Positions 15,001 to 32,153 of a stretch of 64,000 nucleotides of DNA are shown here, one piece after another; within the stretch, counting starts at the first letter, position 1; the number at the start of each line of letters is the position of its first letter. Origin of the DNA: an uncultured Planctomycetia bacterium (GTDB lineage: Bacteria > Omnitrophota > Gorgyraeia > Duberdicusellales > 4484-171); the NCBI GenBank assembly GCA_964489445.1, contig CAZAYU010000002.1:77020-141019 (forward strand), read 5' to 3'. The notes below the pieces were generated by a model. The model searched no databases. It was not told the DNA's origin and saw nothing but the letters and a program-made list of their open reading frames with translations. The translations under genes and the position numbers were made by a program.

Positions 15001-15991
15001 AAGTCTTACGGACAATGGAAGATATAACTGGTTTGGTTGGTTTAATCTTGAGAATATTGATGTTTGGCGGATTTTAGGGTTTGGATGTATTGATCCTTGT
15101 CAATTTTGTCTACAGGAAAATGTAAAATCAAAAGCAGTTAATTATCCATTACCGGTGATTATCAAGTTGGTAATTGAAGAGAACCCAGCAGCGCAATTTA
15201 ATTTTTGGCATAATAATGAACCGTTTCAGTGGTATGATCCGTTTTTTAAGAGTTCCTTAGACGGACTAATTGAATTTACTGTACGACGATATCCGCATAT
15301 GTTTTTTTATGTGACAACAAGAGGCTTTGAATTGAGTGATTGTCGTTCAGAAAAGACTGCCAGAAATATTTGCAATTTGGTAAATGAATATCCGCAACTA
15401 AAGAATCGTATTTTTAATGTTTCTTTTCATCTTTGCTTAGGAACTCTTAAGTATGACATTATCCGCGCGATAGCATATCGGGGTAAACAGCCAGAAATAT
15501 TTAATCAAGTCCGAAAAAATTATATTGAAAGGTATAGAAATATCTTTTCAGCTTTAAACAGTGCAATTCAAAGAATTTATATTTATCGAGACGGTCCAAA
15601 TAATTTTTTAGGAGAAATTAATTGGGATATTTTTGCTAAAGCAACTCAAGAGATAGGGAGGCACGAATGGCAGGTAGAGTCACATACGATAGGCAATCAT
15701 GATTCTTATAATAAAAGCAGGGATTTTATCAACAGGCTTAAGCAGGCATTTAATGGCAAATATGTTAGGGCTTCTTATATGAGAATACAGAACCGGGATT
15801 TTATTCCAGAGGATAACGTTCCTCAGATAGAGACATTCAAGAGTGGAAAAGTTATTATTCGCAGTAATGGGGAGGAAATTGCAAGATCGACATTAGTTGA
15901 CTTAGATTATCATCCAGAAGCTGCGCTGAGAATTAATGGGTGCGGATTAGGTGTTGAGAGCAATTATGGTGCACCAATAAATGTTCAGTAA
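89..15991 (+). CDS. Giant multidomain protein of at least 5300 aa. The 5' end is uncertain. The first in-frame start-like codon is TTG at 89; a TTG at 122 has a GAGGA Shine-Dalgarno 7 nt upstream. The same frame is open, with no stop, back to window position 2, so the gene may begin upstream of the window.
   Basis: Single stop-free frame of 15.9 kb in an AT-rich sequence, which is impossible by chance. Codon and composition usage match the neighbouring genes. Multiple enzyme and HTH motifs are recognisable (listed as separate features). No N-terminal signal peptide. Confidence 0.85.
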   Translation: MSRVNGKEEEHLPSWQDRFSALKGFLEKEGISQDICIAVSYAVCSKIVDSRKLKYRLRFFQKYGFLTEKECRLLIKRKYIDWERFSQRIAEEYRVLINSSQKFTEKQVKLILKRGFSEQAACDLKNKYRKYGITKSELVQSMCNQDPEKYLGKLIMPRARADGNRMIFRRHLEDEIGVFFLPAERNEIIDGLLEFITGRKWEHNEVFVRKLNKLTQCNTITLKQKNMLLNIGRYASEAFTNQFKPKDVAQRIKQNMILYLDPSLQNGLVTPRQALFLVVRGYLYPEFKSIMNEYCLTKTELLEVIHGYSNPGEILEKLRPQRINYLHRKTKLPEYFIKIILIKRGSKITDGYLEDLLKEAKYLIKTYAIPVYIALNWYIRGNNAQSFKQRVVGLSRQEGLPIRLTYHLFFQRELTQKDINRNIIMLSESCGRILQEKKVAYQKMQESLSALEKDIYRDVSFVQAVIIRKKIEQLVKARPNNEILNGLKKEFGVKYHILQELVDLIFNQLKNDNLSEAIYSGARNKGVSLAVYRIVEARKEIKKIAKTASKEITDFQNNNLMYLYQKRKKASVRENSELKKCLSEKIVQRISGKLGGVLEESVIIELGEKIISGFFNTKNGKVKNKLERFRENGSLTLQQCALVESHRWQVFSRENWLDRLSDNLVFDVSRLKREFDFSDSLVINIILKGYYYSWICELYRQYPHLKKSFLDRMFRAEFPEKYLLCHCGPLDREVKAAQVFMKELTKSTDFSLPKQVEELLSQDYTYRQLVVLVLNARVNHSESNISLGKQAARYFVQAHLSIAEEIAKEYRYRYCSRQCIQEGTTALYEALKSYTPDYQSENGFPEHARKFIKQRYEQILKMTRKDYQNQNYHSVSIDAPAYGDSSRITKQEILGVNDIASGFGNNLHQLNPEDNIIFSEKAQNGSIKQKEEREDLRKNIFSDVARKLYQQKNISSAWLEILLSEINQYSGDSEDLSQQFNVDVEEVEKCLKIGLAKIGEHIIAHPELIAHFSISAVSEVKQKKGTLQYEEKKGSSSALKVVEHLCCNEEFIEITNCASYRHLRSPPKKIVIPECSYSLARFFRLSFGRASSPVNQDKNIAFKYNQNNPESIIAETFLARMYGNINPDRKAKILWQLLLGAGIIPFWQTAKIISKTIIFMVWATFCFKWNQKYREQFFKTVKEDLSCRYSKTAYIGNQTTACRVDFKERIQNRKIVEEFTQCIRKIFSSVIFIWCFTTFSCLMKFVDTLDGRAVIVYCFGLPEMVLFFVILPAAAYLFLINVIYNIDVIVRDLEKSLAIETSIISRKSSSNCDNSSSSSIERRYTSSLREISHIGEIIRELIRKDPFAAFSFNNEKLWMQIVPDKSNCLRYVIYPEVGEVRRLFFLRALNKPVGDPFVAPSGSLGQIIFFLNNSIEIEKLASGMFLEVQSNIWLRRMNPEMRNLLLRWIISAVQHIISAAHKEGIYDFYASTPKFIKSIYLRDGIRLDQGNLKKHYQRPFRRQWQKKDIEVLDKYVNYTDSNIVPLWYYNRESRLLKSSSSISIISGKEPEPISAVKINTNPLTSSQQVYLENAAKGRKIPSYYLNVIFEKFRKLELISSERESWDRCRPIVRLEALRVAMANHWIKPGNISFLEEVIRNPLSPKQQDILELILDLELDVRNFSRTYQILADKFKITVNSVANNHVRQIYKKLKVNSGLIKSGWGLVEAAKIAAESGYIKYDVSKYERFVQKYSKIELTVGEKKCLIKQIFGIDSEYVRSRDAKLMNAMSSCNRRIRNKLGIRKKWNRGDSMMPVADYVLRQDMISTEDIVTVAVSLPYITKIFSVDFLKVYFSRKHSARDIKEAFKVFLPGNVEKTKKIILFYICNVKQIIYPLTSGCLEALEDALRVNLPATVKQFGPTVFFGLFGEGEKDLGALVRKLISKRVHDFNPGDLSCRKEKLARVSIKEPEEEPEEEFKTANSANVEEIKMLTKFFSPEEFDPNLLYKVGEKILGNGFLLPVLEEKIDFIMGLLLDRNRRHDYVYAFLILKKAMEDHPQRTAELFIPHLFSKQLPINNDGLPFIEKLYKERNGWFDYFIHKLWPYLSQPLKNDISQLQNHKSLSSTGVDYWGMSSSSINYKNYNDYVCTNKETIVGSSAINNRPVKSFTELNKEEVFKLVPKGSRRHTRNVIRLVGQIGNVVGLAQKELCCLKYLACAHDIGKGNKNISHLFLSSEIWDKNAKERRLARKHSRYTVVILEKHFGIQLPHGERQIIFWHNRLKAINWKWVSSQNKLFWLILIIADIIDGSIDTSRKHKVGKNLKFDPAMTLKRIRIVVGDLLSADDNVKKIYNVVERLCFNEEFIETANRASYRHLRSPPEEIAIPKCGDSVSKSVYSGWKNGKAVSSSAVFRGVNYSASKIDIKEISIPNIRNHHYQIILKKTNNGNWPGICKVWVNSTSVGDLEYWVRETLVVLRRFYIKRKYRGEGIGQTVMHFIADLVWEKNIRFNTKTLLGISAVTDAVLVRTFCNAIENIVYGSLDDPKSTDKEDLLSKVNSGGGLNFRGDPIGLSALYPKEKEWPIFFESASSVVNADYCSSSLPVSISDELITEIKVLRRRDEPGYSNFMQLLDKANSYDIKAAIDRIEPYLRSYFILLLSKKDPEKLILKSISPMDILPLEKIADILSIDSSAFMIAQSADEYKNSISLYIPGETKLVKIFIRSLSMLPITISRFADNREPLPPYINEFLGRKGVKSCIIHDGYRTRVQLFYGLTWRFSIDYFELDSSLWGKGIGDILYVNLERYAKECGFTVISVEGGCPVEPKSEVFFARQGFSESFAIRDEGGRESNPQMTFIVFKKIISSAFADNSSSPMDKEDYKDFGQKQGSKEQAANEKEEIENALRKTRVRNEAAKIFGISPAQFYRKIKKHGIDLNTFSKKKGRLSDITKEKMEELIIRHKGSVAAIAYELKVSGTAVSLLLKKYGQADWAKEQRKKYGKIINKKRFQMMMSSWKKNRKTAVREVTRICFGEENINADDEIFFWEKENRIKVTKILDAVVKDIIGEGFHVIPEIRRNKFILACGLRELLVSAKAASSRELLKEAGLIPAGNCLDGLEVSSSALFNFGWRLALPVSRAINHYSLKCFRVKQPKSNLIVIDVKIGKEKKGCIKSLSSKRLILSAGESLPFKSCEIIDVKSIEFIEKDSRKKSSSSLKTIGFGSSDLSFDRCHKEAQRLIKTLQYKGIPWTDAYMRVLPEVEKVTKKYPDKWFISAINLGIAITKEGLLPCPILYYGVGLAVISSNASFDQYKQNLNCLKYWAEEISRIVWKNVNEEGEKYNFRQISTTKSKNIIWRNTAYRKIDDSLKSIEVNGITSSRRLRTALDESSGYSINWPSSCLVTFCSDQSEYKNYIIRFLSRCLGNGHSKNVNVKERLEENVSSSSVEIVFNSPDWEAIRNTELFSVVVPISGRTDDYNIFYQKTYDWLLYFFRLSLFKEQIADLLSYTLAEIFHDAVRKNLDLRAAYSLSGFFVLDNSTECAPVYLNAEFIQKANSQTDYQWLLSTQKEYAKQGPDYLLSEKIQKNRQDIDDDFRYGLAQFARLIYELPCCLKYAVSSIAPFKTTVEFTVKIMNLPDFVEKDVPICTLKKEKLQKAKVLLTSELSKWKNQLDLTLAFSGQENREHIFFRKGLMQLSMKNLISLRTFEEIREVLLSAHKIIFKIHENIITLPSLSGKEKLKISSGRLANINFNCAFLKQWLGELFKEIEVIENIGHHSNGKAKVRTLLPKKVSSSIMKAEKEAITSLAVISCLTRGEEELSLLDTSFYFPQYLRKKTSEFVYGSNNPVSSSAVKSNEYLFGLKIISMKIIYSENPESVLEQILQLSMRFAVEDGEMLMTKEYIKDEIENDSKDFNLAFVDAAGVIIGYLLTQESPRHPNALWFTFMGVEKERRNKGFAKMMMKIAALKAVEYNIERIKLGVRKENKIAIAMYERCGFQRDPITYFKSEKEEINFQDYSETMSKKYGFKMSSQDKITIDGVGYEFVDFSAVPSEIVKSIINTSSLELNEEFKESRIIAFGLNYNPRLTSFLRVISTLIEVYGRFKEKDISLRIVRLWDEQELNFEKPIECYTFQISHSEQIKLVIESKTRSKEAVVEAMNIVACLLTQPEFENGLNCRNAPEKQKFDELFHKFRIILSLEGSSPDSPLSVATAASPKSTSSPVNKNWRQKLINAADDLRVLKLEGIILSRLSDFERTILQKRTEFPPVDRKNVAAELGYPVWKVANIERMLSVKVPALLKLWKHADAVLIALFNGCRVNINYIGIKNIDLLSRMIEPAVRFSKKETELMKFLCQIIEYREQKSSEINSLIVIKREMSLGIFQVKPSTWRIFVQNFRGTDDPLSSSSLVFSSSLSTEIEEVIAQTLTSVASPVSISEKRIRKVRIFLKEHLNPNIIGIIVHGSTARGDALEESDFDFGLIKINGDFTYELTQADLDFHRGLLRCLAPVKVDNQLKPLIWKGEEAFNKFVSLYFLERKYATAIEDVPWVNKLEAFIKSYRIIARNKELENIIYQRIEDARKSIMKSVRNKENKTAFTSSSIDGSKRQRINNLAEYKRLMKLNAQLLVRSNTVSSSFPAEKDGEVERSLISVDSFMDFTGPVYYPASELDLESMVWLARLFPKLKMLMYVDVLDPDEMNAATVFKPEEDDGEGVSGAFRYYGPDDMSLLQRQMQNKLSQFQYHNEAIIDYKNTGVDIISVEDMELLLKVSFKRNIKKAPWLNSRVIEINFLVCDIFDYKKIFNVIYVNYPGYCGGLARVEEFWVLMRKQISEQGCLLETNIHRKTPKTRVFKKKLFSKTDQIKLTQYPRIDVLRPIKIISASPLNYSNLALGSVRESRVSSTISHCSKVVSIRKLTLADFDVSNYSSSSVSASSNLVTSSILGNLYNMRNMFIAYQDILSSSGKMIQAWVNESIAAMYKPDIRSKEIRRAKKITELMPDPQRISLTDNGRYNWFGWFNLENIDVWRILGFGCIDPCQFCLQENVKSKAVNYPLPVIIKLVIEENPAAQFNFWHNNEPFQWYDPFFKSSLDGLIEFTVRRYPHMFFYVTTRGFELSDCRSEKTARNICNLVNEYPQLKNRIFNVSFHLCLGTLKYDIIRAIAYRGKQPEIFNQVRKNYIERYRNIFSALNSAIQRIYIYRDGPNNFLGEINWDIFAKATQEIGRHEWQVESHTIGNHDSYNKSRDFINRLKQAFNGKYVRASYMRIQNRDFIPEDNVPQIETFKSGKVIIRSNGEEIARSTLVDLDYHPEAALRINGCGLGVESNYGAPINVQ
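2530..2700 (+). other. Sigma-70 region-2-like segment inside the giant ORF (CIQEGTTALYEALKSYTPDYQSENGFPEHARKFIKQRYEQIL).
   Basis: Resembles the sigma-70 r2 consensus (LIQEGNxGLMKAVEKFDPxxGxxFSTYAxxWIRQAI) in spacing and residue classes. Motif-level only. Confidence 0.35.
3208..3313 (+). repeat. Copy A of a 35-aa intragenic motif (VVEHLCCNEEFIEITNCASYRHLRSPPKKIVIPEC).
   Basis: About 80% nucleotide identity over roughly 105 nt to copy B at 7082..7186. The same reading frame is conserved. Confidence 0.85.
3480..3960 (+). other. Cluster of 3-4 hydrophobic, putative transmembrane, segments inside the giant ORF, about aa 1131-1291.
   Basis: Stretches IIFMVWATFCFKW, IFSSVIFIWCFTTFSCLM and AVIVYCFGLPEMVLFFVILPAAAYLFLINVIY are each 13-30 consecutive hydrophobic residues. 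Confidence 0.5.
5012..5180 (+). other. LuxR/GerE-type helix-turn-helix module inside the giant ORF (LSPKQQDILELILDLELDVRNFSRTYQILADKFKITVNSVANNHVRQIYKKLKV).
   Basis: Matches the LuxR-type pattern LSxRExxVLxLxxxGxSxxEIAxxLxISxxTVxxHxxxIxxKL. Confidence 0.45.
6590..6900 (+). other. HD-domain phosphohydrolase-like module inside the giant ORF. The HD dyad is at nt 6680..6685 (H2198-D2199).
   Basis: RRHTRNVIRLVGQIG...LKYLACAHDIGK has the HD-superfamily signature of a first His followed by the xxHDIGK motif. His and Asp residues further downstream fit the metal-ligand positions. Confidence 0.5.
7082..7186 (+). repeat. Copy B of the 35-aa intragenic motif (VVERLCFNEEFIETANRASYRHLRSPPEEIAIPKC).
   Basis: Paired with copy A at 3208..3313. 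The two copies are 3874 nt apart. Confidence 0.85.
7447..7640 (+). other. GNAT acetyltransferase-like core number 1 inside the giant ORF (RRFYIKRKYRGEGIGQTVMHF...).
   Basis: Matches the acetyl-CoA-binding motif A pattern R-x-x-G-x-G/A (YRGEGIGQTVM). Confidence 0.45.
8368..8500 (+). other. GNAT acetyltransferase-like core number 2 inside the giant ORF (LWGKGIGDILYVNLERYAKECGFTVISVE).
   Basis: WGKGIGDIL followed by an aromatic/acidic and GF segment is typical of GNAT motifs A and B. Confidence 0.4.
8707..8975 (+). other. Two tandem Fis/NtrC-type HTH motifs inside the giant ORF (NALRKTRVRNEAAKIFGISPAQFYRKIKKHGIDL and EELIIRHKGSVAAIAYELKVSGTAVSLLLKKYG).
   Basis: Both fit the C-terminal HTH of sigma-54 activators and Fis (AL..T.GN...AA..LGISR.TLYRKLKKYGI). 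Confidence 0.5.
11790..12010 (+). other. GNAT acetyltransferase-like core number 3 inside the giant ORF (VEKERRNKGFAKMMMKIAALKAVEYNIERIKLGVRKENKIAIAMYERCGFQ).
   Basis: RRNKGFAKMMM (motif A) followed by AIAMYERCGF (motif B, YxxxGF) is classic GNAT spacing. Confidence 0.5.
12737..12900 (+). other. Sigma-70 region-4-like HTH inside the giant ORF (LSDFERTILQKRTEFPPVDRKNVAAELGYPVWKVANIERMLSVKV).
   Basis: Resembles the r4 pattern LxxRERxVLxLRF...TLxEVGxxxGVTRERIRQIExKAL. Confidence 0.3.
13361..13445 (+). other. Minimal Pol-beta-type nucleotidyltransferase motif inside the giant ORF (IIGIIVHGSTARGDALEESDFDFGLI).
   Basis: hG[GS]x9-13Dh[DE]h signature: HGSTARGDALEESDFDF. Confidence 0.5.
15078..15988 (+). 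other. C-terminal radical-SAM-like segment of the giant ORF. Cys codons lie at nt 15086, 15098 and 15107 (C5000-x3-C5004-x2-C5007).
   Basis: GFGCIDPCQFC is a CxxxCxxC cluster. It is followed by WHNNEPFQW (GGEP-like) and YVTTRGF (TNG-like) at the expected spacing for a radical SAM core. Confidence 0.4.
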
Positions 15992-17399: not shown

Positions 17400-17560
17400 G
17401 CAATAAATAGGATTAAGCGGTAAGGATTAAGGGGTAGCGAGAAGCAAAGTGCATCGAGCAGAGAGCATGGAGAAAGAAGAGGGTAAAAATTAGAAGGGAG
17501 AAGTTTTCGAGGGGTGATGGGACGACAGGCGAAAGGACGACAGAAAATAGGAAAGTTTAT
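17400..17560. repeat. GA-rich intergenic element, copy C. It contains the tandem short repeats AGGATTAAG (x2) and GGACGACAG (x2).
   Basis: Shares TAGGATTAAG and GATGGGACGACAG / GATGGACGATAG with the copy at 23600..23720. Confidence 0.55.
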
Positions 17561-17602
17561 AGTTGATAGTCTAGAGTCTATAGAAAGAGTAAGTAAATAA
17601 AA

Positions 17603-17629
17603 ATCTGTTTTAACTTAGTTAAAACAGAT
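17603..17629 (+). promoter_or_regulatory. Perfect 11-bp stem with a 5-nt loop (ATCTGTTTTAA cttag TTAAAACAGAT). It lies 12 nt upstream of the oppC-like start, between oppB and oppC.
   Basis: Inverted repeat read directly. It abuts the AGGT Shine-Dalgarno of the downstream gene. Confidence 0.45.
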
Positions 17630-17640
17630 AGGTAAACAGA

Positions 17641-18696
17641 ATGAATATTTGGAAAAAAATTTTTAAGAGTAAAGCCGGAGCAGTTTCTTTGGTTACTTTA
17701 TCTGTGCTTTATCTGGGGATAATTTTTGCTGCTTTCTTTGCGCCTTACAACTATGATCAGGATGATGTTCTGAATTCTTACTCTCCGCCGACAAAAATTC
17801 ATTTATTTAATTTTTCTGCCAAGCAGTTTACACCGTTTGTTTACGGAAAAAAATGCGTGGTTAATAAATATTATCAGCGTATTTATTCTGAAGATAAGAG
17901 CAAAATATATCCAGTAAAGTTTTTTACTAAAGGTTTCAAATATAAGCTATTCGGGATTTGGAATTGCAATCGGCATTTGTTTGGAACGGATGAGGGTAAA
18001 ATTTATTTGTTGGGTGCAGATTTAAGAGGCCGAGATTTATTTTCTCGGATTCTTTACGGAGGAAGGATATCGCTTTCTATAGTGGTTGTTGCTGGTTTGA
18101 TTTCTTTTTCCATTGGACTGTTGGTCGGAGGAATTTCTGGTTACTTTGGCGGTAAAATTGATAATTTTACTATGCGTGTTTGTGAAATAATCATGATGAT
18201 TCCTTCTTTTTATTTATTATTAGTATTACGTTCTTCTTTTCCGGTAAACTGGGGATCGGCACAAGTATATTTTATGGTAGTAATAATTCTTTCATTGATT
18301 GGCTGGGCTTCTTTAGCCCGGACGATTCGGGGGATGGCGCTTTCTTTGCGGGAGAATGATTTTGTTTACGCGGCAAAATCTGCCGGATTAGGAAATTTTA
18401 AAATAATCATTAAGCATATTTTACCGCATACACTTTCGTATTCGCTAGTTGCATTAGTATTAAGTATTCCTTCTTATATTTTAGCAGAAGCGGCTCTTAG
18501 CCTTATTGGATTGGGAATCCAAGAGCCGCAAGCAAGCTGGGGAAATTTATTGTCTTCGGCTTTAGGAATAGTAAATATTCGTCTTTATCCCTGGATATTA
18601 ATTCCCGGAATATTTATTATAATTACCGGGATGTGTTTTTATATTTTAGGCGATACATTACGTGATATTTTTGATCCGAAAAGAAAGATTCTATGA
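17641..18696 (+). CDS. ABC transporter permease of the OppC/DppC family.
   Basis: N-terminal transmembrane segment, a long periplasmic loop, then a permease core. Its stop overlaps the start of the next gene. Confidence 0.8.
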   Translation: MNIWKKIFKSKAGAVSLVTLSVLYLGIIFAAFFAPYNYDQDDVLNSYSPPTKIHLFNFSAKQFTPFVYGKKCVVNKYYQRIYSEDKSKIYPVKFFTKGFKYKLFGIWNCNRHLFGTDEGKIYLLGADLRGRDLFSRILYGGRISLSIVVVAGLISFSIGLLVGGISGYFGGKIDNFTMRVCEIIMMIPSFYLLLVLRSSFPVNWGSAQVYFMVVIILSLIGWASLARTIRGMALSLRENDFVYAAKSAGLGNFKIIIKHILPHTLSYSLVALVLSIPSYILAEAALSLIGLGIQEPQASWGNLLSSALGIVNIRLYPWILIPGIFIIITGMCFYILGDTLRDIFDPKRKIL

Positions 18697-19478
18697 TTTT
18701 AGAAATTAACAATTTAAGTGTCGCATACAATAGCGAAAAAATATTAGTTTCTGCCCTAAATAACATCAACCTTTACTTAGAGCAGGGTGAAATATTAAGT
18801 GTGGTTGGAGAATCAGGCTCAGGTAAAAGTACGCTTGCTTTCTCATTATTAGATTTATTGCCACAGGATGCGCAAAGAAAAGGTGAGGCTTACTTTAAAG
18901 GAGAAAATATTTTTTGTTTTAAAGACAAAGAAATGGAAAATTTACGCGGGAAACGAATCGGCCTTATATTTCAAGAACCGTCGGTAACTTTTAATCCGGT
19001 ATTAAGTATTAGCTATCAGTTCCAGGAGATTTTAAAAACTCGGATGGGGATAAATAGTAAAGAGGAAAGAATAGAAATTATGGTTGATCTTTTTAAAAAA
19101 GTACATTTGGATGGTTGGAAGCGAATATTGAGTAGTTATCCGCACCAATTAAGCGGAGGTGAACTTCAACGGATTGCAATCGCGATGGCTGTTTCTTTTA
19201 AGCCGGATATTTTGCTTTGCGATGAGCCAACTAGCTCTTTAGATGTGACTATTGAGAGTCAAATTATTCATTTATTTAAAGAGTTGAAGGAAACATTGGG
19301 CTTAACTTTGTTGTTTATTACGCATAATCTCGAATTGGCAAGAGTGTTATCGGATCGGGTGGCTGTTTTACATCAGGGTTGTTTGCGGGAAGTAAATAAT
19401 AAACAAAAGTTGTTTGATTACCCCCAAGACAAATACACAAAACAACTTTTATCTTCTTTCCAAGAGTTAGAAGGGTGA
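18693..19478 (+). CDS. Oligopeptide/dipeptide ABC transporter ATPase, OppD-like.
   Basis: Walker A GESGSGKST, the LSGGELQR signature, and Walker B ILLCDEPTSSLD. Confidence 0.85.
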   Translation: MILEINNLSVAYNSEKILVSALNNINLYLEQGEILSVVGESGSGKSTLAFSLLDLLPQDAQRKGEAYFKGENIFCFKDKEMENLRGKRIGLIFQEPSVTFNPVLSISYQFQEILKTRMGINSKEERIEIMVDLFKKVHLDGWKRILSSYPHQLSGGELQRIAIAMAVSFKPDILLCDEPTSSLDVTIESQIIHLFKELKETLGLTLLFITHNLELARVLSDRVAVLHQGCLREVNNKQKLFDYPQDKYTKQLLSSFQELEG

Positions 19479-19488
19479 TTTCTAATTC

Positions 19489-20442
19489 TTGAAAAGTGGA
19501 AAGGTAGATAAATATTTATGGGATGCAAGAATGATTAATAGCATTTATAAGTTATTGGAAGTAAAAGACTTAAGTGTGCAATTTTCCCAGGGTAAAAAAA
19601 ATGTTAAAGCAGTAGACGGGGTGAATTTTTTTCTTCAAAAAGGAGTTATTACCGCTTTAGCCGGTGAGAGTGGATGTGGGAAAACTACACTGGCAAAAAC
19701 AATTTTAAAATTTCATAAACCGGCTGGAGGAAAGATATACCTAAATAGTAGAGACATTACATTAAAAAGTAATGAGCGGTATTTAAGAAAAAATATTCAA
19801 GTTGTTTTTCAAAATCCGTTTTCTAGCCTTGATTTCCGGTATTCTATTTTTTCCTCTCTTTATGAATCTTTATCCGTATTTAAAAAGATAAAAAAAGATC
19901 AAGCCGAAGAAATTATTGTAAAATCGTTAAACGATGTAGAATTAGATAAAGGGATAATGCTTCGCTATCCGCAGCAATTAAGCGGAGGACAGGTACAAAG
20001 AGTGTGTATTGCCCGTGCTTTAATCAACAAGCCTTCTTTAGTCATTCTAGACGAGCCGACATCAAGCTTAGATGTAACTACTGCTTCCAAAATTGTTAGG
20101 TTGCTTGCGAAAATACAACAGGATTCAGGCGTTACTTTTTTATTTATTTCACATAACTTGCGGCTTTTAAAGAAAGTTTCTGATTTTTGTTTTATTATGT
20201 ATGCGGGTAAGGTTGTAGAGTTTGGTCCTAAGCAGCTGGTCTATGATAATCCGCTTCATCCTTATACTAAACTTTTGATGGAAGCCTCTTACTATAGATT
20301 AAAACGTTTTAAAGATTCAAAGGTTTCTTTAAATGGATGTTCTTTTTCTTCGCGCTGCACCTACCAAGAGGATAAATGCTCAAAGGAATCCAACTTCAAG
20401 GAGGTAGAGCCAGGTCATTTTGTCTCTTGCTGTCTTTTTTAA
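19489..20442 (+). CDS. Oligopeptide/dipeptide ABC transporter ATPase, OppF-like, with a Cys-rich C-terminal extension. The start may be the internal ATG near 19531.
   Basis: Walker A GESGCGKTT, LSGGQVQR, ILDEPTSSLD. The C-terminus contains CSFSSRCTYQEDKCS...CC. Confidence 0.8.
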   Translation: MKSGKVDKYLWDARMINSIYKLLEVKDLSVQFSQGKKNVKAVDGVNFFLQKGVITALAGESGCGKTTLAKTILKFHKPAGGKIYLNSRDITLKSNERYLRKNIQVVFQNPFSSLDFRYSIFSSLYESLSVFKKIKKDQAEEIIVKSLNDVELDKGIMLRYPQQLSGGQVQRVCIARALINKPSLVILDEPTSSLDVTTASKIVRLLAKIQQDSGVTFLFISHNLRLLKKVSDFCFIMYAGKVVEFGPKQLVYDNPLHPYTKLLMEASYYRLKRFKDSKVSLNGCSFSSRCTYQEDKCSKESNFKEVEPGHFVSCCLF

Positions 20443-20471
20443 CCATCTTCCACCTTGAAGGTGGAAGATGG
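20443..20471. terminator. Perfect 14-bp-arm palindrome CCATCTTCCACCTTGAAGGTGGAAGATGG immediately after the oppF-like stop, followed by TTGTTGTG. Likely an intrinsic terminator and a member of a repeated palindromic element family.
   Basis: The reverse complement is identical except for the single central base. It starts 1 nt after the stop codon at 20440..20442. Confidence 0.55.
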
Positions 20472-20488
20472 TTGTTGTGACTGAAGGT

Positions 20489-20517
20489 GTTTGACATAGT
20501 ATGCATTTTTGGGTAAT
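20489..20517 (+). promoter_or_regulatory. Candidate promoter TTGACA-N17-TAATTT upstream of the metH activation-domain gene.
   Basis: Consensus -35 box with a weak -10 box. Confidence 0.3.
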
Positions 20518-20566
20518 TTATAGTATAATTGTTTTAATTTAAAGATATTAATTTAAGAAATATAAG

Positions 20567-21199
20567 ATGAGATTAGAATTTTTTGAAAACATTAATATTC
20601 CTGCGCCTAAAGAGAAGATTTATTTGCGTTTGGGATTTTCCAAGCAAAATACACAATTATCCACCGATGAATTCCTAAAGTATGAAGCAGATATTAATTC
20701 GGCCTTAGAAAAAATAAGTTTAAAAGGCTCGTTGGTGATTCTGGATATAAAAAATAATGATGGCAAAAAAATTATGCTAGAAGGAAATATTGGAATAGAA
20801 AGTAGTCGTTTGGCTAAATTTTTAGGTGAATGCTCCGAGCTTATTTTTATCGGGATAACTGCTGGAAGTGATATAATAAAAATGATAAATATCGAGCAAA
20901 TTAGTAAAAATTTAAGCAAAGCGGTAGTCCTTGATGCAGTAGCTAGTGAGATGGTTGATTTTGCTTTGGGTTGGGTTGCCGGACGTAAAGCAAAAGATCT
21001 AAGACGACAAAACAAATTTATTACTGAGCAAAGAATGTCAGCAGGGTATGGTGATTTTAATATCCAATATCAAAAAGTTATTTGTGAATTATTAAAATTA
21101 GACAGATTAGGCGTGCAATTAACGCAGAGCTATATTCTTGATCCTGAGAAGTCGGTTACTGCAGTCTATGGAGTTAAACAAGAACATATTAATAAATAA
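20567..21199 (+). CDS. Stand-alone activation (AdoMet-binding/reactivation) domain of cobalamin-dependent methionine synthase.
   Basis: About 210 aa with the RMSAGYGDF (RxxPGYGD-like) motif, encoded immediately upstream of a MetH core that lacks this domain. Confidence 0.55.
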   Translation: MRLEFFENINIPAPKEKIYLRLGFSKQNTQLSTDEFLKYEADINSALEKISLKGSLVILDIKNNDGKKIMLEGNIGIESSRLAKFLGECSELIFIGITAGSDIIKMINIEQISKNLSKAVVLDAVASEMVDFALGWVAGRKAKDLRRQNKFITEQRMSAGYGDFNIQYQKVICELLKLDRLGVQLTQSYILDPEKSVTAVYGVKQEHINK

Positions 21200-21217
21200 G
21201 GGTGAGTGTAGAGTATT

Positions 21218-23614
21218 ATGAAAAAAATTGATCAAATACTAAAACAAAGAGTGTTGATTTTAGACGGTGCCGTCGGAACTCAATTGCAAAAAATGGGGCT
21301 TCCTTGCGGAGTTTCTCCGGAAATTTGGTGTGTTCAGAATCCGAATATATTAATGAAATTGCATCAAGAATATATTCAGTCCGGCTCAGATGTTATTTAT
21401 ACTGCAACTTTTGGCGCAAACAGAATTAAATTGGCACAGTTTGGCTGTAAGTCGGTGCCTGAGATAAATAATCAGTTAGCGTTAATTGCTAAAAAAGCTG
21501 CTGGTAAAAATGCTTTAGTTGCCGGAGGTATCGGGCCAACGGGTGAGTTAATCGAGCCGTTTGGAAATTTAAAATTTGAAGAGGCAGTTAATATTTTTAA
21601 AGAGCAAGTTAAAAGTTTATTGAAAGCTGGTGTTGATTTTTTTGTTATTGAAACAATGATCGATATTCAGGAGGCTCGTGCTGCGTTAATTGCGGTTTCG
21701 GAATTAACGGATAAGTTTAGGATGGTAAGTATGACTTTTGAGCCCGATGGAAATACTTTGGGTGGAACACCGCCTGAAGCAGCATTGATTACTTTGCAAA
21801 GTTTAGGGGCCAGTGCTTTTGGTTGTAATTGCTCAACCGGACCTGAGGCGATGGTTGATATTATCAGAAAAATAAAGCCGTATGCGACAATTCCGTTGTT
21901 AGCAAAACCGAATGCCGGTTTTCCCAGATTGTCCGGTGGTAAGACTATTTTTACTATGAATTCTAAAGAATTTGCTAAATATTCAGTGGATCTGGTTAAA
22001 GCTGGTGCTAATATTTTGGGTGGCTGCTGTGGAACTGATCCCGAATATATTAAGGCATTAATAGAAAAAATAAAACATATTAAGCCGAAAGAAATTAGGC
22101 AAAAGAATTTATCAGCATTATCTTCGGCCCGAAAAAGCATTATTCTTGGAGATAATATGCCTTTGGTGGTTGTTGGTGAGTGCATTAATCCTACCGGAAA
22201 AAAAGAATTGAGTTCGCAGCTTAAAAAAGGTCAAATATCATTATTAAGGGATTTAGCTAAGCAGCAACAGCAGAAGGGCGCAGACATTTTAGATGTTAAT
22301 ATTAGTGTCGGTCAAATAGATGAACAGAAATTAATAATTGATGTTGTTTCTGCGTTGAGTAATGACACACATTTACCGTTGGTAATTGACTCATCGACAC
22401 CGGAAGTTATTGAAAAATTTTTAAGGCTTTATCCAGGAAGAGCGTTGATTAATTCTATTTCTGCAGATAACCAAAAGATGAAAAAATTGCTTAATATAGC
22501 TTCTCGGTATGGGGCAATGTTTATTTTGCTTCCGATTAGCGGGAAAAATATTCCGAAAAATTTACCAGAAAAGAAAAAAAATATTAATACTATTATTCGG
22601 GAAGCAAAAAAAGTTGGATTTAATAAAGATGGTTTTATAATTGATGCTTTAGCCTTGTCAATTTCTGCAAATCCTAATTCTGCTTATGAAATATTGGAAA
22701 CAATTAAATGGGCAAAAGAAAATGGACACAAAACAGTAATTGGATTGTCTAATGTTTCGTTTGGAATGCCGCAAAGGGCATTGCTGAACTCCACCTTTCT
22801 TATTTTAGCGCGGAGTAAGGGTTTAGATTGTGTTATTGCTAATCCTTTATCTAGTGAAGTTACAAACGCAAAAAAAGCAGTTGATTTATTATTGCGGGAA
22901 AAAGGAGCCAACAAAAGGTTCTTCCAAAATGTAAACGATAGATTGTTAATTATTCCGGATGTAAAAAATCTTAATCAAGTAGAGAAAGAAATTTATCAGC
23001 TTATTTTAGAAGGTCGGAAAGAACAAATTAAAAAAGCAATAAATAAAGCGGTGGCTAATGGTGTAAAAGCACAGTCTTTAATTGATAAAGTATTAGTTCC
23101 GGCGCTTGAGCAAACCGGAAAACTTTTTGATCAACGGATTTATTTTTTACCCCAATTAATTTCTGTTGCTGAAACCGCAAAAATTGTTTTTGGGCTTCTT
23201 CAGGCAAAACTTAAAACTAAAAAAACAATAGCTAAAAAAGCAATAGTTATTTTAGCAACAGTCAAAGGAGACATCCACGATATCGGGAAGAATATTGTTG
23301 CCTTGATGTTGGAAAATTACGGGTTTAAAGTAATTGATTTAGGAAAAGATGTTTCCGCAGAAAAAATTATTAACGCGGCTATTTTTTATAAAGCTTCACT
23401 TATTGGTCTTTCGGCATTAATGACGACTACAATGATAAATATGAAAGATGTAGTAGAATTAGCTAAAACAAAAAAAATAGAATGTAAGTTCTTAATTGGT
23501 GGGGCGGTAGTAACTCAAAATTATGCTAAAACCTTAGGTGCTGAGTATGCATCGGATGGCTTGGAAGCGGTGAGAGCGGCGAAGAGACTGGTGAAAAGTA
23601 CTAAGATAGGATAG
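21218..23614 (+). CDS. metH: Cobalamin-dependent methionine synthase core (Hcy S-methyltransferase, pterin-binding and B12-binding domains). It lacks the activation domain.
   Basis: N-terminal Hcy-binding barrel (ILDGAVGTQL...GGCCGT), a pterin-binding segment (VVGECINPTGKK), and the B12 DxHxxG motif GDIHDIGKNIV plus the SAL/GG motifs. Confidence 0.85.
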   Translation: MKKIDQILKQRVLILDGAVGTQLQKMGLPCGVSPEIWCVQNPNILMKLHQEYIQSGSDVIYTATFGANRIKLAQFGCKSVPEINNQLALIAKKAAGKNALVAGGIGPTGELIEPFGNLKFEEAVNIFKEQVKSLLKAGVDFFVIETMIDIQEARAALIAVSELTDKFRMVSMTFEPDGNTLGGTPPEAALITLQSLGASAFGCNCSTGPEAMVDIIRKIKPYATIPLLAKPNAGFPRLSGGKTIFTMNSKEFAKYSVDLVKAGANILGGCCGTDPEYIKALIEKIKHIKPKEIRQKNLSALSSARKSIILGDNMPLVVVGECINPTGKKELSSQLKKGQISLLRDLAKQQQQKGADILDVNISVGQIDEQKLIIDVVSALSNDTHLPLVIDSSTPEVIEKFLRLYPGRALINSISADNQKMKKLLNIASRYGAMFILLPISGKNIPKNLPEKKKNINTIIREAKKVGFNKDGFIIDALALSISANPNSAYEILETIKWAKENGHKTVIGLSNVSFGMPQRALLNSTFLILARSKGLDCVIANPLSSEVTNAKKAVDLLLREKGANKRFFQNVNDRLLIIPDVKNLNQVEKEIYQLILEGRKEQIKKAINKAVANGVKAQSLIDKVLVPALEQTGKLFDQRIYFLPQLISVAETAKIVFGLLQAKLKTKKTIAKKAIVILATVKGDIHDIGKNIVALMLENYGFKVIDLGKDVSAEKIINAAIFYKASLIGLSALMTTTMINMKDVVELAKTKKIECKFLIGGAVVTQNYAKTLGAEYASDGLEAVRAAKRLVKSTKIG

Positions 23615-23720
23615 GATTAAGAGATAAGTGAAGAAAACGATGGACGATAGATGGCGGAAGAGGGACGATAGAGAGAAAGGATAAAGGAAAAAGTAAAAAA
23701 TAGAGAATCTTAAAACTTAT
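23600..23720. repeat. GA-rich intergenic element, copy A (GATAGGATTAAGAGATAAG...GATGGACGATAGATGGCGGAAGAGGGACGATAGAGAG).
   Basis: Purine-rich. Motifs shared with copies at 17400..17560 and 25700..25770. Confidence 0.55.
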
Positions 23721-23834
23721 GTTAGAAGGAAAAGAAGCAGAAAAAAAAGTTATAAAGTAGCAATTATCTACATAATCTATATAAAATGAGTTTAATAAAA
23801 AAGAAGTATAGTATTTGAGTTAAATTTTTTAATT

Positions 23835-23880
23835 TATCCTTTATCCTTGAACCTTTAACCTTTTTATCAATCAGCCAATA
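23835..23880. repeat. CT-rich element (TTTATCCTTTATCCTTGAACCTTTAACCTTTTTATC), partner of the element at 25838..25885.
   Basis: Shared TTTATCCTTTA and CTTGAACCTTTANCCTT cores. Partly complementary to GGATAAAGG in the adjacent GA-rich tract. Confidence 0.5.
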
Positions 23881-23891
23881 ACAGGGGGAGA

Positions 23892-24842
23892 ATGAAAAAA
23901 GGTGTTTTAAAAATCAGCTGTTTAAGTATATCTCTTTTATTGTGTTTTGTATCTATTCCGATATTTGGTGCAGGATCAGGTGTTCCGGAAGAAAAAATTA
24001 CAATTATTACTTATTATCCTGCACCTTTTGGTGTATACAATGAATTACGTTCTAGGAAAATGGCAATCGGCGATGAATACGTTGATAATGCCGGAGACTA
24101 TTGCTGGCAAGGAGAAGGATGCTCAAACGAAATACCTGAAAATATTCGCTTGCAGGTAAACACTCCTGGTTCCTATTTGTCAATCGGAGAAATGACAATT
24201 GCAGGAGGTAGTGCCAGAGGTCTACATATTGGCACTACACATGACCTTAGCGGTAAAGGCGGAGGCATCTGGTATACAACAAACACTTCAGGAGGTAATT
24301 TGTCTGTTGCCAGCACTGATTATATGAGTATCGATACCTCTGAAGACCCTACCACCGGTAGACAATACCCAATCAGAATGCAAACCTGGAGCGACTCCGG
24401 AAGCTGGAAATTGGGTAATGTAGGTATTGGAACGGTAACTCCCCGAGCAGTTTTAGATGTTGCATCCACTACCAGCGGTTTTGTTCCTCCGCGGATGTCT
24501 GCTTTCCAGCGTGATGTTATTTCTAGTCCTGTAGAGGGCTCAATGGTTTATGTTAATGACCCAACAGTTAAGGAGTACAACTACTATGATGGAGTCAGTT
24601 GGCAGGCGTTAGGGGGAGGCGGAGGTTGTTATGTAGACTATAGTCGACCTGGGGGGCAACCGGTAGGAGCAAGCTGTTCAGTAAGTGGATTTACTATCAG
24701 GGCTTCGCTTGGTTCCTGGGGGTTTTGTAGCAGTTATATTTCTGGAGAGAGTGCAGCAGCTTATTTCCTTCCACCAGGTGGTTCATGTTATTCTGGTACA
24801 ACTTCTAAGCCTTATAGTTACGCTTATCTTTGTTGTGAATAG
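23892..24842 (+). CDS. Secreted Gly/Ser/Thr-rich protein with a Cys-rich C-terminal module (8 Cys in the last 90 aa, ending CCE).
   Basis: N-terminal signal peptide MKKGVLKISCLSISLLLCFVSIPIFGAGSG. The internal motif pair GNVGIGTVTPRAVLDV...PRMSAFQRDVISSPVEGSMVYVND is reminiscent of widespread tail-fibre/lectin-like exported proteins. Confidence 0.6.
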   Translation: MKKGVLKISCLSISLLLCFVSIPIFGAGSGVPEEKITIITYYPAPFGVYNELRSRKMAIGDEYVDNAGDYCWQGEGCSNEIPENIRLQVNTPGSYLSIGEMTIAGGSARGLHIGTTHDLSGKGGGIWYTTNTSGGNLSVASTDYMSIDTSEDPTTGRQYPIRMQTWSDSGSWKLGNVGIGTVTPRAVLDVASTTSGFVPPRMSAFQRDVISSPVEGSMVYVNDPTVKEYNYYDGVSWQALGGGGGCYVDYSRPGGQPVGASCSVSGFTIRASLGSWGFCSSYISGESAAAYFLPPGGSCYSGTTSKPYSYAYLCCE

Positions 24843-24909
24843 TTATTTATTTTGTTTCTTGGGAACATACTTAGTGTTTTTTTGCTTAATAGACTTATTT
24901 AAAAGAGTA

Positions 24910-25701
24910 ATGATTAGTAAGCGCTTATGTTGTATTTTGATTTTTTTTGCCTTTATTTTTCCGGTTTTTGCTTGGCAAGTTGAAACACTTCAAACCGATA
25001 GTCCTAAACAACAATTAACTATTAATCTAGTTTTTGCGCCTTTAGATTATTCGGGAAAAGAGGAAATTAAGGAGGATGTTTCTTTAATTACTACACGTTT
25101 AAAAAGTATTTTTCCGTTTAATGAATTTAATGGTTTTCGGTTTTTTTTATTAATATTTGATGGGCAAAAGTCGGGTGACATATTTGAAGAGAGTAAGACT
25201 TTTCCTTATCTCAAAATAAATAATGATTTTATTCAAGAATTAAATGATGAAATCAGGGGAAATTATAAATTAGTAATTTTGAATAAACAAGGAAATGCTA
25301 GCGGTGCCGAGTTGTCAAATATAAATGAGACCTCGATTATAATTTTAGGGAAAAACAGTTTTGGAGAAAAGAATCGATTAGCTAAAGCGTTTTTACATGA
25401 GTTTGGGCATAGTTTGGGTTTAAGAGAAGAAAATCCAACGAGCATTCAGGAAATTATCCCCGGAAAACCAAATTGTGCTTTAAATAAGAACATTGCGGTT
25501 GAGTGGTGGGGTGAGATAGCCGAAGAAAATAGTGGAGTAGATTATTTTGAGATAAAGTCAAACGATAAAATATTTATAAAACCGACTTTGCGTTCAATAA
25601 TGAATGACCCGTTTAAGTCTTACGGTTATGGACCGGTGAATGAGCAATATTTATGTGAAGAACTGGAAATTGAGAGAGATAGAGGAAACTATGGAAGATA
25701 G
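24910..25701 (+). CDS. Secreted HExxH zinc metallopeptidase-like protein.
   Basis: Signal peptide MISKRLCCILIFFAFIFPVFAWQ and the HEFGHSLGL zincin motif. The start was moved to the ATG at 24910; the track ORF beginning at 24685 overlaps the upstream gene in another frame. Confidence 0.6.
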   Translation: MISKRLCCILIFFAFIFPVFAWQVETLQTDSPKQQLTINLVFAPLDYSGKEEIKEDVSLITTRLKSIFPFNEFNGFRFFLLIFDGQKSGDIFEESKTFPYLKINNDFIQELNDEIRGNYKLVILNKQGNASGAELSNINETSIIILGKNSFGEKNRLAKAFLHEFGHSLGLREENPTSIQEIIPGKPNCALNKNIAVEWWGEIAEENSGVDYFEIKSNDKIFIKPTLRSIMNDPFKSYGYGPVNEQYLCEELEIERDRGNYGR

Positions 25702-25770
25702 ATGATGAAAGAGGGACGAAAAAGTAGAGGAGAAAAGAATAAAAAATAAAAAAGTAAGAGAAAACCGGAT
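25700..25770. repeat. GA-rich intergenic element, copy B (GATGATGAAAGAGGGACGAAAAAGTAGAGGAGAAAAG...).
   Basis: Shares AGAGGGACGA with copy A. Confidence 0.5.
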
Positions 25771-25772
25771 TG

Positions 25773-25794
25773 CCACCTTCAAGGTGGAAGATGG
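25773..25794. repeat. Second copy of the palindromic element (CCACCTTCAAGGTGGAAGATGG).
   Basis: Exact 22-nt match to the reverse complement of the 20443..20471 element. Confidence 0.6.
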
Positions 25795-25837
25795 ATAATC
25801 ATTGACGTGTTACATATTTTATTGAATTTATTTTCTG

Positions 25838-25885
25838 ATTTATCCTTTAATCTTTAATCTTGAACCTTTATCCTTGAGAACTGTT
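25838..25885. repeat. CT-rich element (GATTTATCCTTTAATCTTTAATCTTGAACCTTTATCCTTGAGAA), partner of the element at 23835..23880.
   Basis: Direct-repeat relationship with the CT-rich element upstream of the secreted cassette. Confidence 0.5.
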
Positions 25886-25955
25886 TAACTAATTCTGGTA
25901 GCAGGTTTCTGGTTCCTGATAGTAATTACCCAATTTATCCGGCTACGTATTTAGT

Positions 25956-25984
25956 TTGACAGGGTAGAGGTTAGTATATATAAT
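25956..25984 (+). promoter_or_regulatory. Perfect-consensus sigma-70 promoter TTGACA-N17-TATAAT immediately upstream of lysS.
   Basis: -35 at 25956..25961, -10 at 25979..25984. The predicted transcription start is about 25991, only 3-4 nt before the lysS ATG at 25995. Confidence 0.55.
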
Positions 25985-25994
25985 CGTAAGCACT

Positions 25995-27434
25995 ATGGAA
26001 ACTGAAGAAAAACTTAATAGAATTAAGAAGGAATTTGGAAATCCATTTTCTGAAAACTACTTTTCTAAACCATTGCTGGCCAATGAGATATTATCTGCAT
26101 TTGAAGAGGGGAAAGTAGTTTCGTTTGCTGGAAGGCTAATTACGAAAAGAGAACACGGAAAGTCTGGTTTTGCTCATTTAAGTGACGAAAGCGGAAAAAT
26201 ACAAATTTATGCCCAGGCGAATGCATTAGGAGCCGGTTTTCAATTATTTAAGGAATTAGATATTGGAGATATTATTGGGGTAAGCGGTGAGCTATTTAAA
26301 ACTAGAACTGGGGAATCAACAATAGTAGTCAAAGAAATAAAATTGCTTTCTAAGGCTTTGAGACCGCTGCCGGAAAAGTGGCACGGGCTAAAAGATGTTG
26401 AAGTTCGTTATCGTCAACGATATTTAGACTTGATTGCTAATCCGGATTCAAGAGATGTGTTTATTAAACGCTCAAAGATTGTTTCTTTAATCCGTGATTT
26501 TTTTAATAACCGGAAATTTACCGAAGTAGAAACTCCAATGCTTCATCCTCTTCCCGGAGGTGCAGCCGGCAAACCATTTGCGACACATCATAATGCTACC
26601 GACGCACAAGTTTATTTACGAATAGCTCCGGAGCTTTATCTTAAGCGCTTGCTAGTCGGCGGATTAGAGAAAGTGTACGAAATCAATCGGAGTTTTCGTA
26701 ACGAAGGGGTGTCTACTCGGCATAATCCGGAATTTACAATGCTGGAAGCGTATTGTGCCTACAATAATTATGAATACATGATGAATACTTGTGAGGAGTT
26801 ATTTTTATTCCTTATCAAGGAGATGGGATTAAATACAGTTTTGGAATATCAAGGGAAAAGGATAGATTTTACTTCTCCTTGGCCGAGGATTTCGTTTGCG
26901 GAGTTATTCAAGAAAGAATTTGATATCAACCCGGATGATTCACAGGAGGTTATGGTTGAAAAGATTAGCAAGAAATTGAAATTGTCCCAGGGATTAAGTC
27001 GTAGTCAAATATTGAACATTACTGAAGAGTTAATTGAAAAAAATTATCCGGATGATAAACCAGCGTTTATTACTGATTTTTTTACCTGGACTTCTCCATT
27101 AGCTAAGAATAAGAAGGATAATCCGGACATTGTGGAGAGGTTTGAATTATTTATTGCCGGGCTAGAAGTAGCTAATGCTTATTCGGAGTTAAATGATCCA
27201 GTAGAGCAAAGAAAAAGATTTAAAAAACAGTTAGATGTTGAAGAAGAATTGCCTAAAAAAATAGATGAAGATTTTTTATTGAGCTTAGAATACGGAATGC
27301 CGCCGGCCACCGGGCTGGGGATTGGTATTGATAGATTAGTAATGATTATTTTAAACCAGCCTTCAATAAGAGATGTGATCCTTTTTCCTCTCCTCAAAAA
27401 TAAAGAGAATGACGGCGCAGAGAATAGAGAGTAG
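25995..27434 (+). CDS. lysS: Lysyl-tRNA synthetase, class II.
   Basis: N-terminal OB fold plus class-II core motifs (FRNEG, GxGxGxDR). Full-length 479 aa. Confidence 0.9.
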   Translation: METEEKLNRIKKEFGNPFSENYFSKPLLANEILSAFEEGKVVSFAGRLITKREHGKSGFAHLSDESGKIQIYAQANALGAGFQLFKELDIGDIIGVSGELFKTRTGESTIVVKEIKLLSKALRPLPEKWHGLKDVEVRYRQRYLDLIANPDSRDVFIKRSKIVSLIRDFFNNRKFTEVETPMLHPLPGGAAGKPFATHHNATDAQVYLRIAPELYLKRLLVGGLEKVYEINRSFRNEGVSTRHNPEFTMLEAYCAYNNYEYMMNTCEELFLFLIKEMGLNTVLEYQGKRIDFTSPWPRISFAELFKKEFDINPDDSQEVMVEKISKKLKLSQGLSRSQILNITEELIEKNYPDDKPAFITDFFTWTSPLAKNKKDNPDIVERFELFIAGLEVANAYSELNDPVEQRKRFKKQLDVEEELPKKIDEDFLLSLEYGMPPATGLGIGIDRLVMIILNQPSIRDVILFPLLKNKENDGAENRE

Positions 27435-27479
27435 AAGGTAGAGGGTAGAGAAAATTATCCATCGACTATTTTTTTAATA

Positions 27480-30345: not shown

Positions 30346-30819
30346 ATGTTGTGTAATATTTGCCATAAGAATTTAGCGACAGTTCATTTTACAGAGATCG
30401 TTAGTGATGAAATTGTAGAAATGCATATTTGTCAGGATTGTTCTAAAAGTAAAAAAAAAGAACTAATCGGGAGTGTAGATATTTTTGATTTTATTAAAAA
30501 AGAAAATAAAGAGAAAAATGATAGTTTGCCAAAGTGCAATATTTGCGGTATTTCTTACCAAGAATTTAAAAAGAATGGACTGCTGGGTTGCGCAAGGTGC
30601 TACAGTGGTTTCCGTAAGCAACTTTTACCGCTACTTAAAAAGATTCACAGTCGCACTTGGCATGTTGGGAAGAGTCATTTTTTAGATGAGAAGCAAGCGG
30701 TTGCTAAGATGACTGTTGGAAAGTTGAGAGAGCAGCTAAATAGAGCTATTAGCCTTGAAGAATATGAAGAGGCATCGAAATTACGTGATAAAATAAAAAT
30801 AATTGAAAAAGATGCTTAA
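30346..30819 (+). CDS. mcsA: McsA-like protein arginine kinase activator (zinc fingers plus a UVR motif).
   Basis: Two CxxC pairs, then a C-terminal UVR-like EEYEEASKLRDKI. Located immediately upstream of mcsB. Confidence 0.7.
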   Translation: MLCNICHKNLATVHFTEIVSDEIVEMHICQDCSKSKKKELIGSVDIFDFIKKENKEKNDSLPKCNICGISYQEFKKNGLLGCARCYSGFRKQLLPLLKKIHSRTWHVGKSHFLDEKQAVAKMTVGKLREQLNRAISLEEYEEASKLRDKIKIIEKDA

Positions 30820-30915
30820 AAAAGAATATTCTAGATAAAAGGTGTTTTAGCCGTAATGTGTGGAAAAATAAGCTATCTGTGATAAATTTATCCAAAAAAA
30901 TAATAGGGGAAAATA

Positions 30916-31974: not shown

Positions 31975-32153
31975 ACTGTTAGAAGATTACTGTCACAGTT
32001 TGATTAATAATTTAGCATTGTATATTTTGTTTTTAGGGAAGATGTTGTAAAATTTTCTAGTTATAAGTTCACAATCCTGAGAGGGATTAATTTGATTGTG
32101 TAATTTTTTCGTGTTTTGACTTAAAAAATTATAATTTTATTGAGGAGGGAAAA

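Follow-up and report, generated by a model that had tools for sequence, protein, structure and literature searches.

What are the purine-rich tracts that follow several genes in this 64 kb window—the whole stretch of contig CAZAYU010000002.1 analysed here, in which the G+C content is 34–35%, the GC skew is strongly positive all along and the + strand carries nearly all of the genes? The initial annotation listed four such tracts, after oppB, metH, a 263-aa open reading frame (ORF) and lysS, and took them for a family of conserved non-coding repeats downstream of genes; all four are present where it placed them. We conclude, with a probability of roughly 0.7, that each tract is a degenerate array of tandemly repeated heptamers (heptanucleotide simple-sequence repeats) and that together they form a dispersed family, occupying the gaps that separate co-directional genes in an uncultured Omnitrophota bacterium. 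Intergenic heptanucleotide repeats are a known, if poorly understood, kind of bacterial repeat, of which the window tracts are an instance, here common in Omnitrophota; the arrays make up a visible share of the intergenic DNA sampled from that phylum, frequently arranged as a hairpin that spans the gap between the stop codon of one gene and the start of the following one.

Periodicity within the window was assessed by a self-similarity scan at lags of 4–15, with one strict and one looser threshold. At the strict threshold lag 7 was nearly the sole scorer (lag 15 gave a few windows), and every lag-7 window lay in the flagged spacers; at the looser threshold lag 7 marked 17412–17593, 23637–23731, 23807–23884, 25704–25774, 25813–25894 and 27401–27470. 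It is this confinement of lag-7 enrichment to the flagged spacers that leads us to describe the tracts as degenerate heptamer arrays. A lag-7 match at 10930–10980 was rejected as an array, being A-rich coding sequence inside a giant ORF. Tandem Repeats Finder (TRF) reported short period-7 or period-14 arrays at all four tracts, and the tandem short repeats described previously inside the first tract are confirmed, with a period of 14 at 17409–17436 and 17443–17477. TRF also found arrays in two pyrimidine-rich stretches, 23833–23863 and 25839–25877, that were absent from the initial annotation. The features concerned are given below; L-numbers are our labels for the other loci and contigs compared with the window.

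17405–17593, + strand: tract A, purine-rich, in the 259-nt oppB–oppC spacer, beginning ~25 nt past the oppB stop; AGGATTAAGCGGTA twice, a 14-nt unit (TRF consensus AGCAAAGAGCATCG) 2.6 times, GGACGACAG twice, and the further units GTTTATA GTTGATA GTCTAGA GTCTATA.
20443–20471, no strand assigned: palindrome directly after oppF, perfect, 29 nt, made of heptamer units (CCATCTT CCACCTT g AAGGTGG AAGATGG).
23600–23712, + strand: tract B, purine-rich, beginning at the metH stop codon (23612–23614); units AGGATTAAGAGATAAG, GGACGATAG twice, AGAGGGACGA and (AAAGGAA)n.
23833–23865, − strand: pyrimidine array 1, TTTATCC TTTATCC TTGAACC TTTAACC; previously missed.
25665–25768, + strand: tract C, purine-rich, across the end and stop codon (25699–25701) of the 263-aa ORF.
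25765–25800, + strand: hairpin module, TTGCCACCTTCAAGGTGGAAGATGGATAATC, also in L138; its full palindrome form is that at 20443–20471.
25838–25880, − strand: pyrimidine array 2, TTTATCC TTTAATC TTTAATC TTGAACC TTTATCC; previously missed.
27414–27455, + strand: tract D, AGAATAG AGAGTAG AAGGTAG AGGGTAG AGAAAAT, spanning the lysS stop codon (27432–27434).

The two pyrimidine arrays keep a single 7-nt register, with a mod-7 coherence of z 5.1 (23833–23865) and z 5.6 (25838–25880); tract D is intermediate (z 2.7). Purine-rich units in this genome are of the types AAGGATW, AAGSGGT, GGACGAY and AGAGRGT, and its arrays are built from related units, as seen from the words common to tracts A, B and C; the pyrimidine arrays are the reverse complement of AAGGATA/AAGGTTC-type units, the second being 83% identical to 23824–23863. 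In all five purine tracts the purine-rich units lie on the sense strand, with an onset at, or no more than ~25 nt from, the upstream stop codon. Every array of the window is in a spacer or overlaps only the last codons of the upstream gene, tracts C and D running over the final codons and the stop codon; the suggestion of a 3′ untranslated region element had at least the position right. The words themselves exceed chance: compared with 100 dinucleotide shuffles of the window, GGACGAYAG (four found against 0.21 expected, no shuffle reaching four) and AGAGGGACGA (two copies against 0.05) are in excess, and AGGATTAAG (four against 1.3, with three of the 100 shuffles reaching four) is weak on its own.

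In two spacers purine arrays are followed by complementary ones, and a transcript reading through both could form a fold-back structure. These are intergenic region (IGR) B, the spacer after metH, and IGR C, the spacer after the 263-aa ORF; IGR A denotes the oppB–oppC spacer that contains tract A. Within IGR B, 23677–23701 and 23824–23848 are 92% complementary over 25 nt and are paired in both the minimum-energy and the centroid fold; the array at 23833–23865 runs into TTTTT and stops 27 nt short of the following start codon, and the long A/U-rich stem with its trailing TTTTT is at most suggestive of a terminator. Intrinsic terminators of the usual form (a short GC-rich stem plus a U-run) were not found on the + strand of the four spacers. 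The array at 25838–25880 lies ~75 nt upstream of the −35 box of lysS, whose perfect 12/12 sigma-70-type promoter (TTGACA, 17 nt, TATAAT; 25956–25984) is conserved in the relatives L053–L057, L142 and L143, as is the TTTAGTTTGACA context in front of it. Neither tract A nor tract D has a partner array; a 12-bp perfect hairpin at 17603–17629 (ATCTGTTTTAAC TTA GTTAAAACAGAT), ending 11 nt ahead of the oppC start codon, provides most of the predicted structure in the oppB–oppC spacer. The palindrome after oppF, which was overlooked previously, sits in a spacer that as a whole folds with z −4.25, and its right half recurs at 25773–25794.

The same pattern extends across the phylum. We sampled up to 20 kb around lysS in 80 species genomes, of which ~55 loci (773 kb, G+C 34–66%) were assigned to Omnitrophota on the assumption that LysS similarity and record title suffice, several of them being titled ‘uncultured Planctomycetia’; the best LysS identity to the window protein among these loci is 79%, and every homologue that bears a name belongs to Candidatus Omnitrophota, Ca. 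Susulua stagnicola being 76% identical. This set holds 48 lag-7 tracts (by crude ORF calls, 33 are mostly non-coding), against one to four tracts for each of lags 4, 5, 8, 10, 11 and 13, and against six lag-7 tracts in 384 kb from other phyla; the pooled intergenic autocorrelation peaks at 7, 14 and 21 in Omnitrophota only. Some 18% (30/165) of co-directional spacers of 60–450 nt hold an array. The typical build is (unit)n, a short loop, then (reverse-complement unit)n, with consensus units that agree at 5–7 of 7 positions, and the layout recurs with other unit sequences: an array at the stop codon (onset −22 to +30 nt relative to it in ~15 spacers), a loop, and a complementary array that continues up to the ribosome-binding site of the next gene (ending no more than ~30 nt from its start codon in ~10/13 pairs). 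Purine content is higher in the 5′ than in the 3′ arm in nine of the ten pairs compared. Array spacers fold with a median z of −2.5 to −2.9 relative to dinucleotide shuffles, 17/30 falling below −2, against a median of −1.1 and 12/45 for array-free spacers; examples are L098 (z −6.0) and L056 (z −4.3 to −5.2).

The arrays of related genomes consist of unrelated units; the AAGGTTC unit of the window is also found in a genome of 66% G+C (L102). Near-identical arrays occupy two spacers of one genome in L128 (6012–6158 and 16279–16450), L070 (13354–13417 and 14443–14520), L080 (14306–14365 and 15987–16073) and L066 (3283–3352 and 6534–6602); from this recurrence, genome-specific dispersed families appear to be general.

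For the window's own family, a scan of JGI metagenomes with the hairpin 22-mer gave one further genomic site, L138/L139 (contigs of 33% G+C), the L139 sample (Ga0222696) being also the origin of a contig that is identical to the window; matches in L140 and L141 lie inside ABC ATPase coding sequence and are unrelated. The L138 copy occupies a 259-nt spacer that opens directly behind the stop of a 160-aa gene; read in the sense of that gene, it contains in order AGGATTAAGAGATAAGGATTAAGGGGTAAG, GACGATAGATGACAGAAGAGGGACGAAAAAGTAGAG, TTGCCACCTTCAAGGTGGAAGATGGATAATC and AGGATTAAGTGATAAAGATTAAGCGGTAAG; it also has the exact 20-mer AGAGGGACGAAAAAGTAGAG in common with tract C. By nhmmer, IGR C against L138 is the sole statistically solid pair (E 1e-7 to 2e-8), the match between IGR B and L138 is marginal (E about 0.05) with tract B alignable to the IGR C and L138 copies, and IGR A matches nothing but itself, tract A having only short words in common with the others. 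The family is therefore real, and the proposal of lineage-specific non-coding repeats at gene 3′ ends holds, yet what is dispersed is a mosaic of short modules with no unit-length element. L138 and L139 are 99.8% identical; nine of their 12 differences fall in a 300-nt stretch, 4433–4732, that takes in an intergenic gap together with the ends of the genes on either side (ORFs 4337–4624 and 4719–5870), three more are at 8485–8500, and the repeat element has none.

Orthologous junctions turn over rapidly, the arrays being missing or different in relatives with 77–90% LysS identity. Four of these (L055, L056, L057 and L143; LysS 77–79% identical) are compactly spaced: the gene order listed for L055, L056 and L143 is giant gene, PilZ, oppB, oppC, oppD, oppF, lysS, lolC, with an oppB–oppC gap of 3–10 nt, and oppF is separated from lysS by 59–100 nt in all four. 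We accordingly take the 259-nt oppB–oppC spacer with its tract A to be a lineage-specific expansion and, since oppF adjoins lysS in the four relatives, 20443–25994 to be a 5.3 kb insertion. This block contains a 210-aa gene, metH, a PTL_trimer-domain gene and the 263-aa gene (24910–25701), the last of which was labelled a peptidase, a label for which there is no Pfam hit on record. It is bounded by a 22-nt direct repeat, CCACCTTSAAGGTGGAAGATGG, at 20450–20471 and 25773–25794, which resembles an insertion site, duplicated within the terminal palindrome of oppF. In L054 (82% LysS identity) a shorter, different purine heptamer tract follows the 263-aa gene, and a similar array, shorter than tract D, is found at the lysS stop. 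In L053 (90%) lysS is preceded by a different gene, and the spacer between lysS and lolC, 127 nt long, ends in a reversed AAGGATTAAG-type unit. L098 carries a GAGAGTA-type array like tract D after lysS, there with a complementary partner. In L142 (80%) a small GIY-YIG nuclease gene (2539–2799) lies between lysS and lolC, another sign of rearrangement-prone junctions around lysS.

How do these arrays relate to repeats already described? Heptanucleotides have been noted since 2007 as the most abundant class of long repeat—in most genomes, according to Mrazek 2007 as relayed in PMC4679880—and have no established function or mechanism; PMC4679880 and PMC4692102 credit Mrazek et al. 2007 with a hypothesis of 7-nt slippage. 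The closest described system is the GGGAATC/(GGGANTN)n repeat of Xanthomonas, which belongs to a different phylum: ~90% of its copies are intergenic, at an average of 28 nt from the upstream ORF end, with 70–75 convergent pairs per genome and variation between species (Rehm et al. 2015, PMC4692102). Both systems have 7-nt units that are often heterogeneous, typically ~4 to an array; both are intergenic and nearer the upstream ORF end, with many convergent inverted pairs able to form stem-loops, and both differ in length and sequence between related species. Xanthomonas, however, has in each genome a single G-rich unit with the potential to form G-quadruplexes, as opposed to several purine-rich units and no regular G-tracts here, and shows no strand preference, whereas our purine tracts are sense in five of five cases (confounded with the replication strand).

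Intergenic tandem heptamers with several families per genome are also outlined in PMC4692102 for cyanobacteria (STRR in Calothrix PCC 7601, GGGGAYT in Nostoc PCC 7120); by that outline they also sit inside operons (pecE–pecF), with a function that is unknown, and in many cases they are long (as many as 26 units) and nearly perfect, unlike the short and strongly degenerate arrays of the window. The TAACTGA repeats of marine Beggiatoaceae are likewise intergenic direct heptamer repeats, in 2–6 copies, for which a post-transcriptional action was proposed (MacGregor 2015, PMC4679880); they consist of a single unit just upstream of start codons and are almost never inverted (one indirect repeat), whereas arrays here begin at stop codons and often have a complementary partner array. 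With repetitive extragenic palindromic (REP) elements, bacterial interspersed mosaic elements (BIMEs) and the intercistronic stem-loops of selective RNA processing and stabilisation, as in Clostridium cellulolyticum (PMC4423207), the likeness is one of possible working only: all are dispersed intergenic hairpins in operons or at 3′ ends, and intercistronic stem-loops can stabilise the upstream mRNA or set subunit stoichiometry (PMC4423207), but REP elements have no internal 7-nt periodicity. The literature searched contained no mention of heptamer repeats in Omnitrophota.

As to origin, slippage during replication with a 7-nt register, a bias proposed earlier for bacteria, may give rise to the arrays, and the complementarity of their arms would then come from inverted duplication or template switching; related modules could have been spread among spacers by recombination or duplication, on one occasion together with the 5.3 kb gene block. 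Paired arrays might act at the RNA level, as 3′-end or intercistronic hairpins that serve as terminator, mRNA stabiliser or processing site, a role that would resemble that of REP elements or of the stem-loops of selective RNA processing. We regard this hairpin function as tentative and on the whole doubtful. Tracts A and D, purine-rich and unpaired, are most likely remnants, neutral or in decay, that yield no discrete product, given the weak structural signal in the window and their lack of partner arrays.

Several observations weigh against our interpretation. The purine tracts A and B are periodic only locally (mod-7 z of 1.4 and 0.6, respectively), being patchworks of local 7-, 14- and 15-nt duplications. 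Sense orientation cannot be separated from leading-strand orientation, because almost all genes share one strand. Whole-spacer folds of IGR B (z −0.8) and IGR C (z +0.35) are no better than those of shuffles, so the case for a hairpin role is weak here and draws for the most part on other genomes. Sense folding beats antisense folding in array-free spacers too, as a G>C skew would predict; it is thus not specific for RNA function, and we rejected the comparison as a test of RNA-level selection. Ongoing slippage is not observed, there being no length polymorphism among six assemblies of the same population, nor between L138 and L139. Finally, the family inventory for this genome covers ~83 kb.

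Might the arrays be neutral junk and nothing else, functionless by-products of polymerase slippage that are tolerated where spacers can expand? Their quick gain and loss among relatives, the heavy degeneracy of tracts A and B and the missing fold signal in IGR B and IGR C would all fit, as would the stop codons within arrays, which at 106 against 100.5 expected are at the level set by composition (the same figures, despite a density twice that of the antisense strand, 106 against 47, dispose of the idea that units with TAA, TAG or TGA build a three-frame stop barrier). Simple slippage does not generate complementary arrays, however, and the fold scores of array spacers across the phylum, the purine-then-pyrimidine polarity of the pairs and their reach from stop codon to next start all speak for something more; we therefore consider pure neutrality unlikely. 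At the other extreme, Omnitrophota may build co-directional spacers from paired heptamer arrays that a dedicated mechanism, in place of generic slippage, produces and disperses, the resulting stop-to-start hairpins (purine 5′ arm, pyrimidine 3′ arm) being a lineage-specific device for termination, selective processing of mRNA or translational coupling. This appears rather unlikely to us; if true, the purine-rich family of the window would comprise devices of this sort, some partly assembled and others decaying. Omnitrophota, which are uncultured and have compact, one-strand-biased genomes, offer a clean comparative system in which to ask whether heptamer repeats are RNA structures under selection or by-products of mutation.

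The two identities put forward previously, a small RNA (sRNA) family and a remnant resembling a miniature inverted-repeat transposable element (MITE), fare less well, and annotators should be wary of calling such heptamer tracts by either name. A small non-autonomous mobile element, MITE- or REPIN-like, would be a hairpin cassette that inserts downstream of genes and whose copies then decay. Dispersed copies do have modules in common (the exact 20-mer and a 31-nt hairpin module in IGR C and L138), presence and absence vary among close relatives, the 22-nt hairpin half stands at both ends of the 5.3 kb block, and L128, L070, L080 and L066 each repeat near-identical arrays in two spacers. Against this, the copies are mosaics that share no terminal boundaries, the filled oppB–oppC site has no target-site duplication when compared with the empty sites of relatives, neither a transposase gene nor one resembling a REP-associated tyrosine transposase (RAYT) was seen near the tracts (and no RAYT in ~83 kb of this genome), IGR A has no detectable nhmmer homology to other copies, and the hairpin 22-mer has just the one extra genomic site in the JGI metagenomes. 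Nor do viral contigs match the 20-mer or the 22-mer, whereby a phage origin was discarded; the 46 single viral-contig matches to the 17-mer CTTGAACCTTTAWCCTT are consistent with chance. We judge a mobile element quite improbable. More improbable by far is a trans-acting sRNA or protein-sponge RNA, for instance of the CsrA type with repeated GGA, made from the purine-rich tracts. These are purine-rich, taken alone are predicted to be single-stranded, contain several GGA/AGGA motifs and have motifs in common between copies; yet GGA and ANGGA are at or below the level expected from composition (seven GGA in tract A against 8.1, none in tract D against 3.3). No Rfam match was obtained for the tracts at the gathering threshold or at E≤1, no sigma-70-like promoter and terminator were found to bracket a tract in the window, and RNAalifold gave 0 consensus base pairs for the four copies, of which three to four are alignable. 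Furthermore, the tracts overlap the stop codons of upstream genes, identical units also occur inverted on the same strand, and related genomes use unrelated units. Hidden peptides were likewise ruled out, all frames of the three long spacers being full of stops.

The locus belongs to a lake metagenome population represented in several samples of JGI and ENA, with JGI 3300031697, 3300023233 and 3300023253 as source lake samples; over the region, six assemblies are 100% identical. Upstream of the PilZ–opp cluster lies the giant gene, an ORF of ~5300 aa (89–15991), whose syntenic counterpart in a relative (L056, 1–4756) was called at 14,105 aa. Elsewhere in the window, at 30346–34601, genes for an mcsA-like protein (UVR domain), mcsB (arginine kinase with McsB_C) and clpC form a cluster that adjoins lolCD–ilvE and is conserved in the window's Omnitrophota clade; clusters of this mcsA/mcsB/clpC type are best known from Firmicutes.

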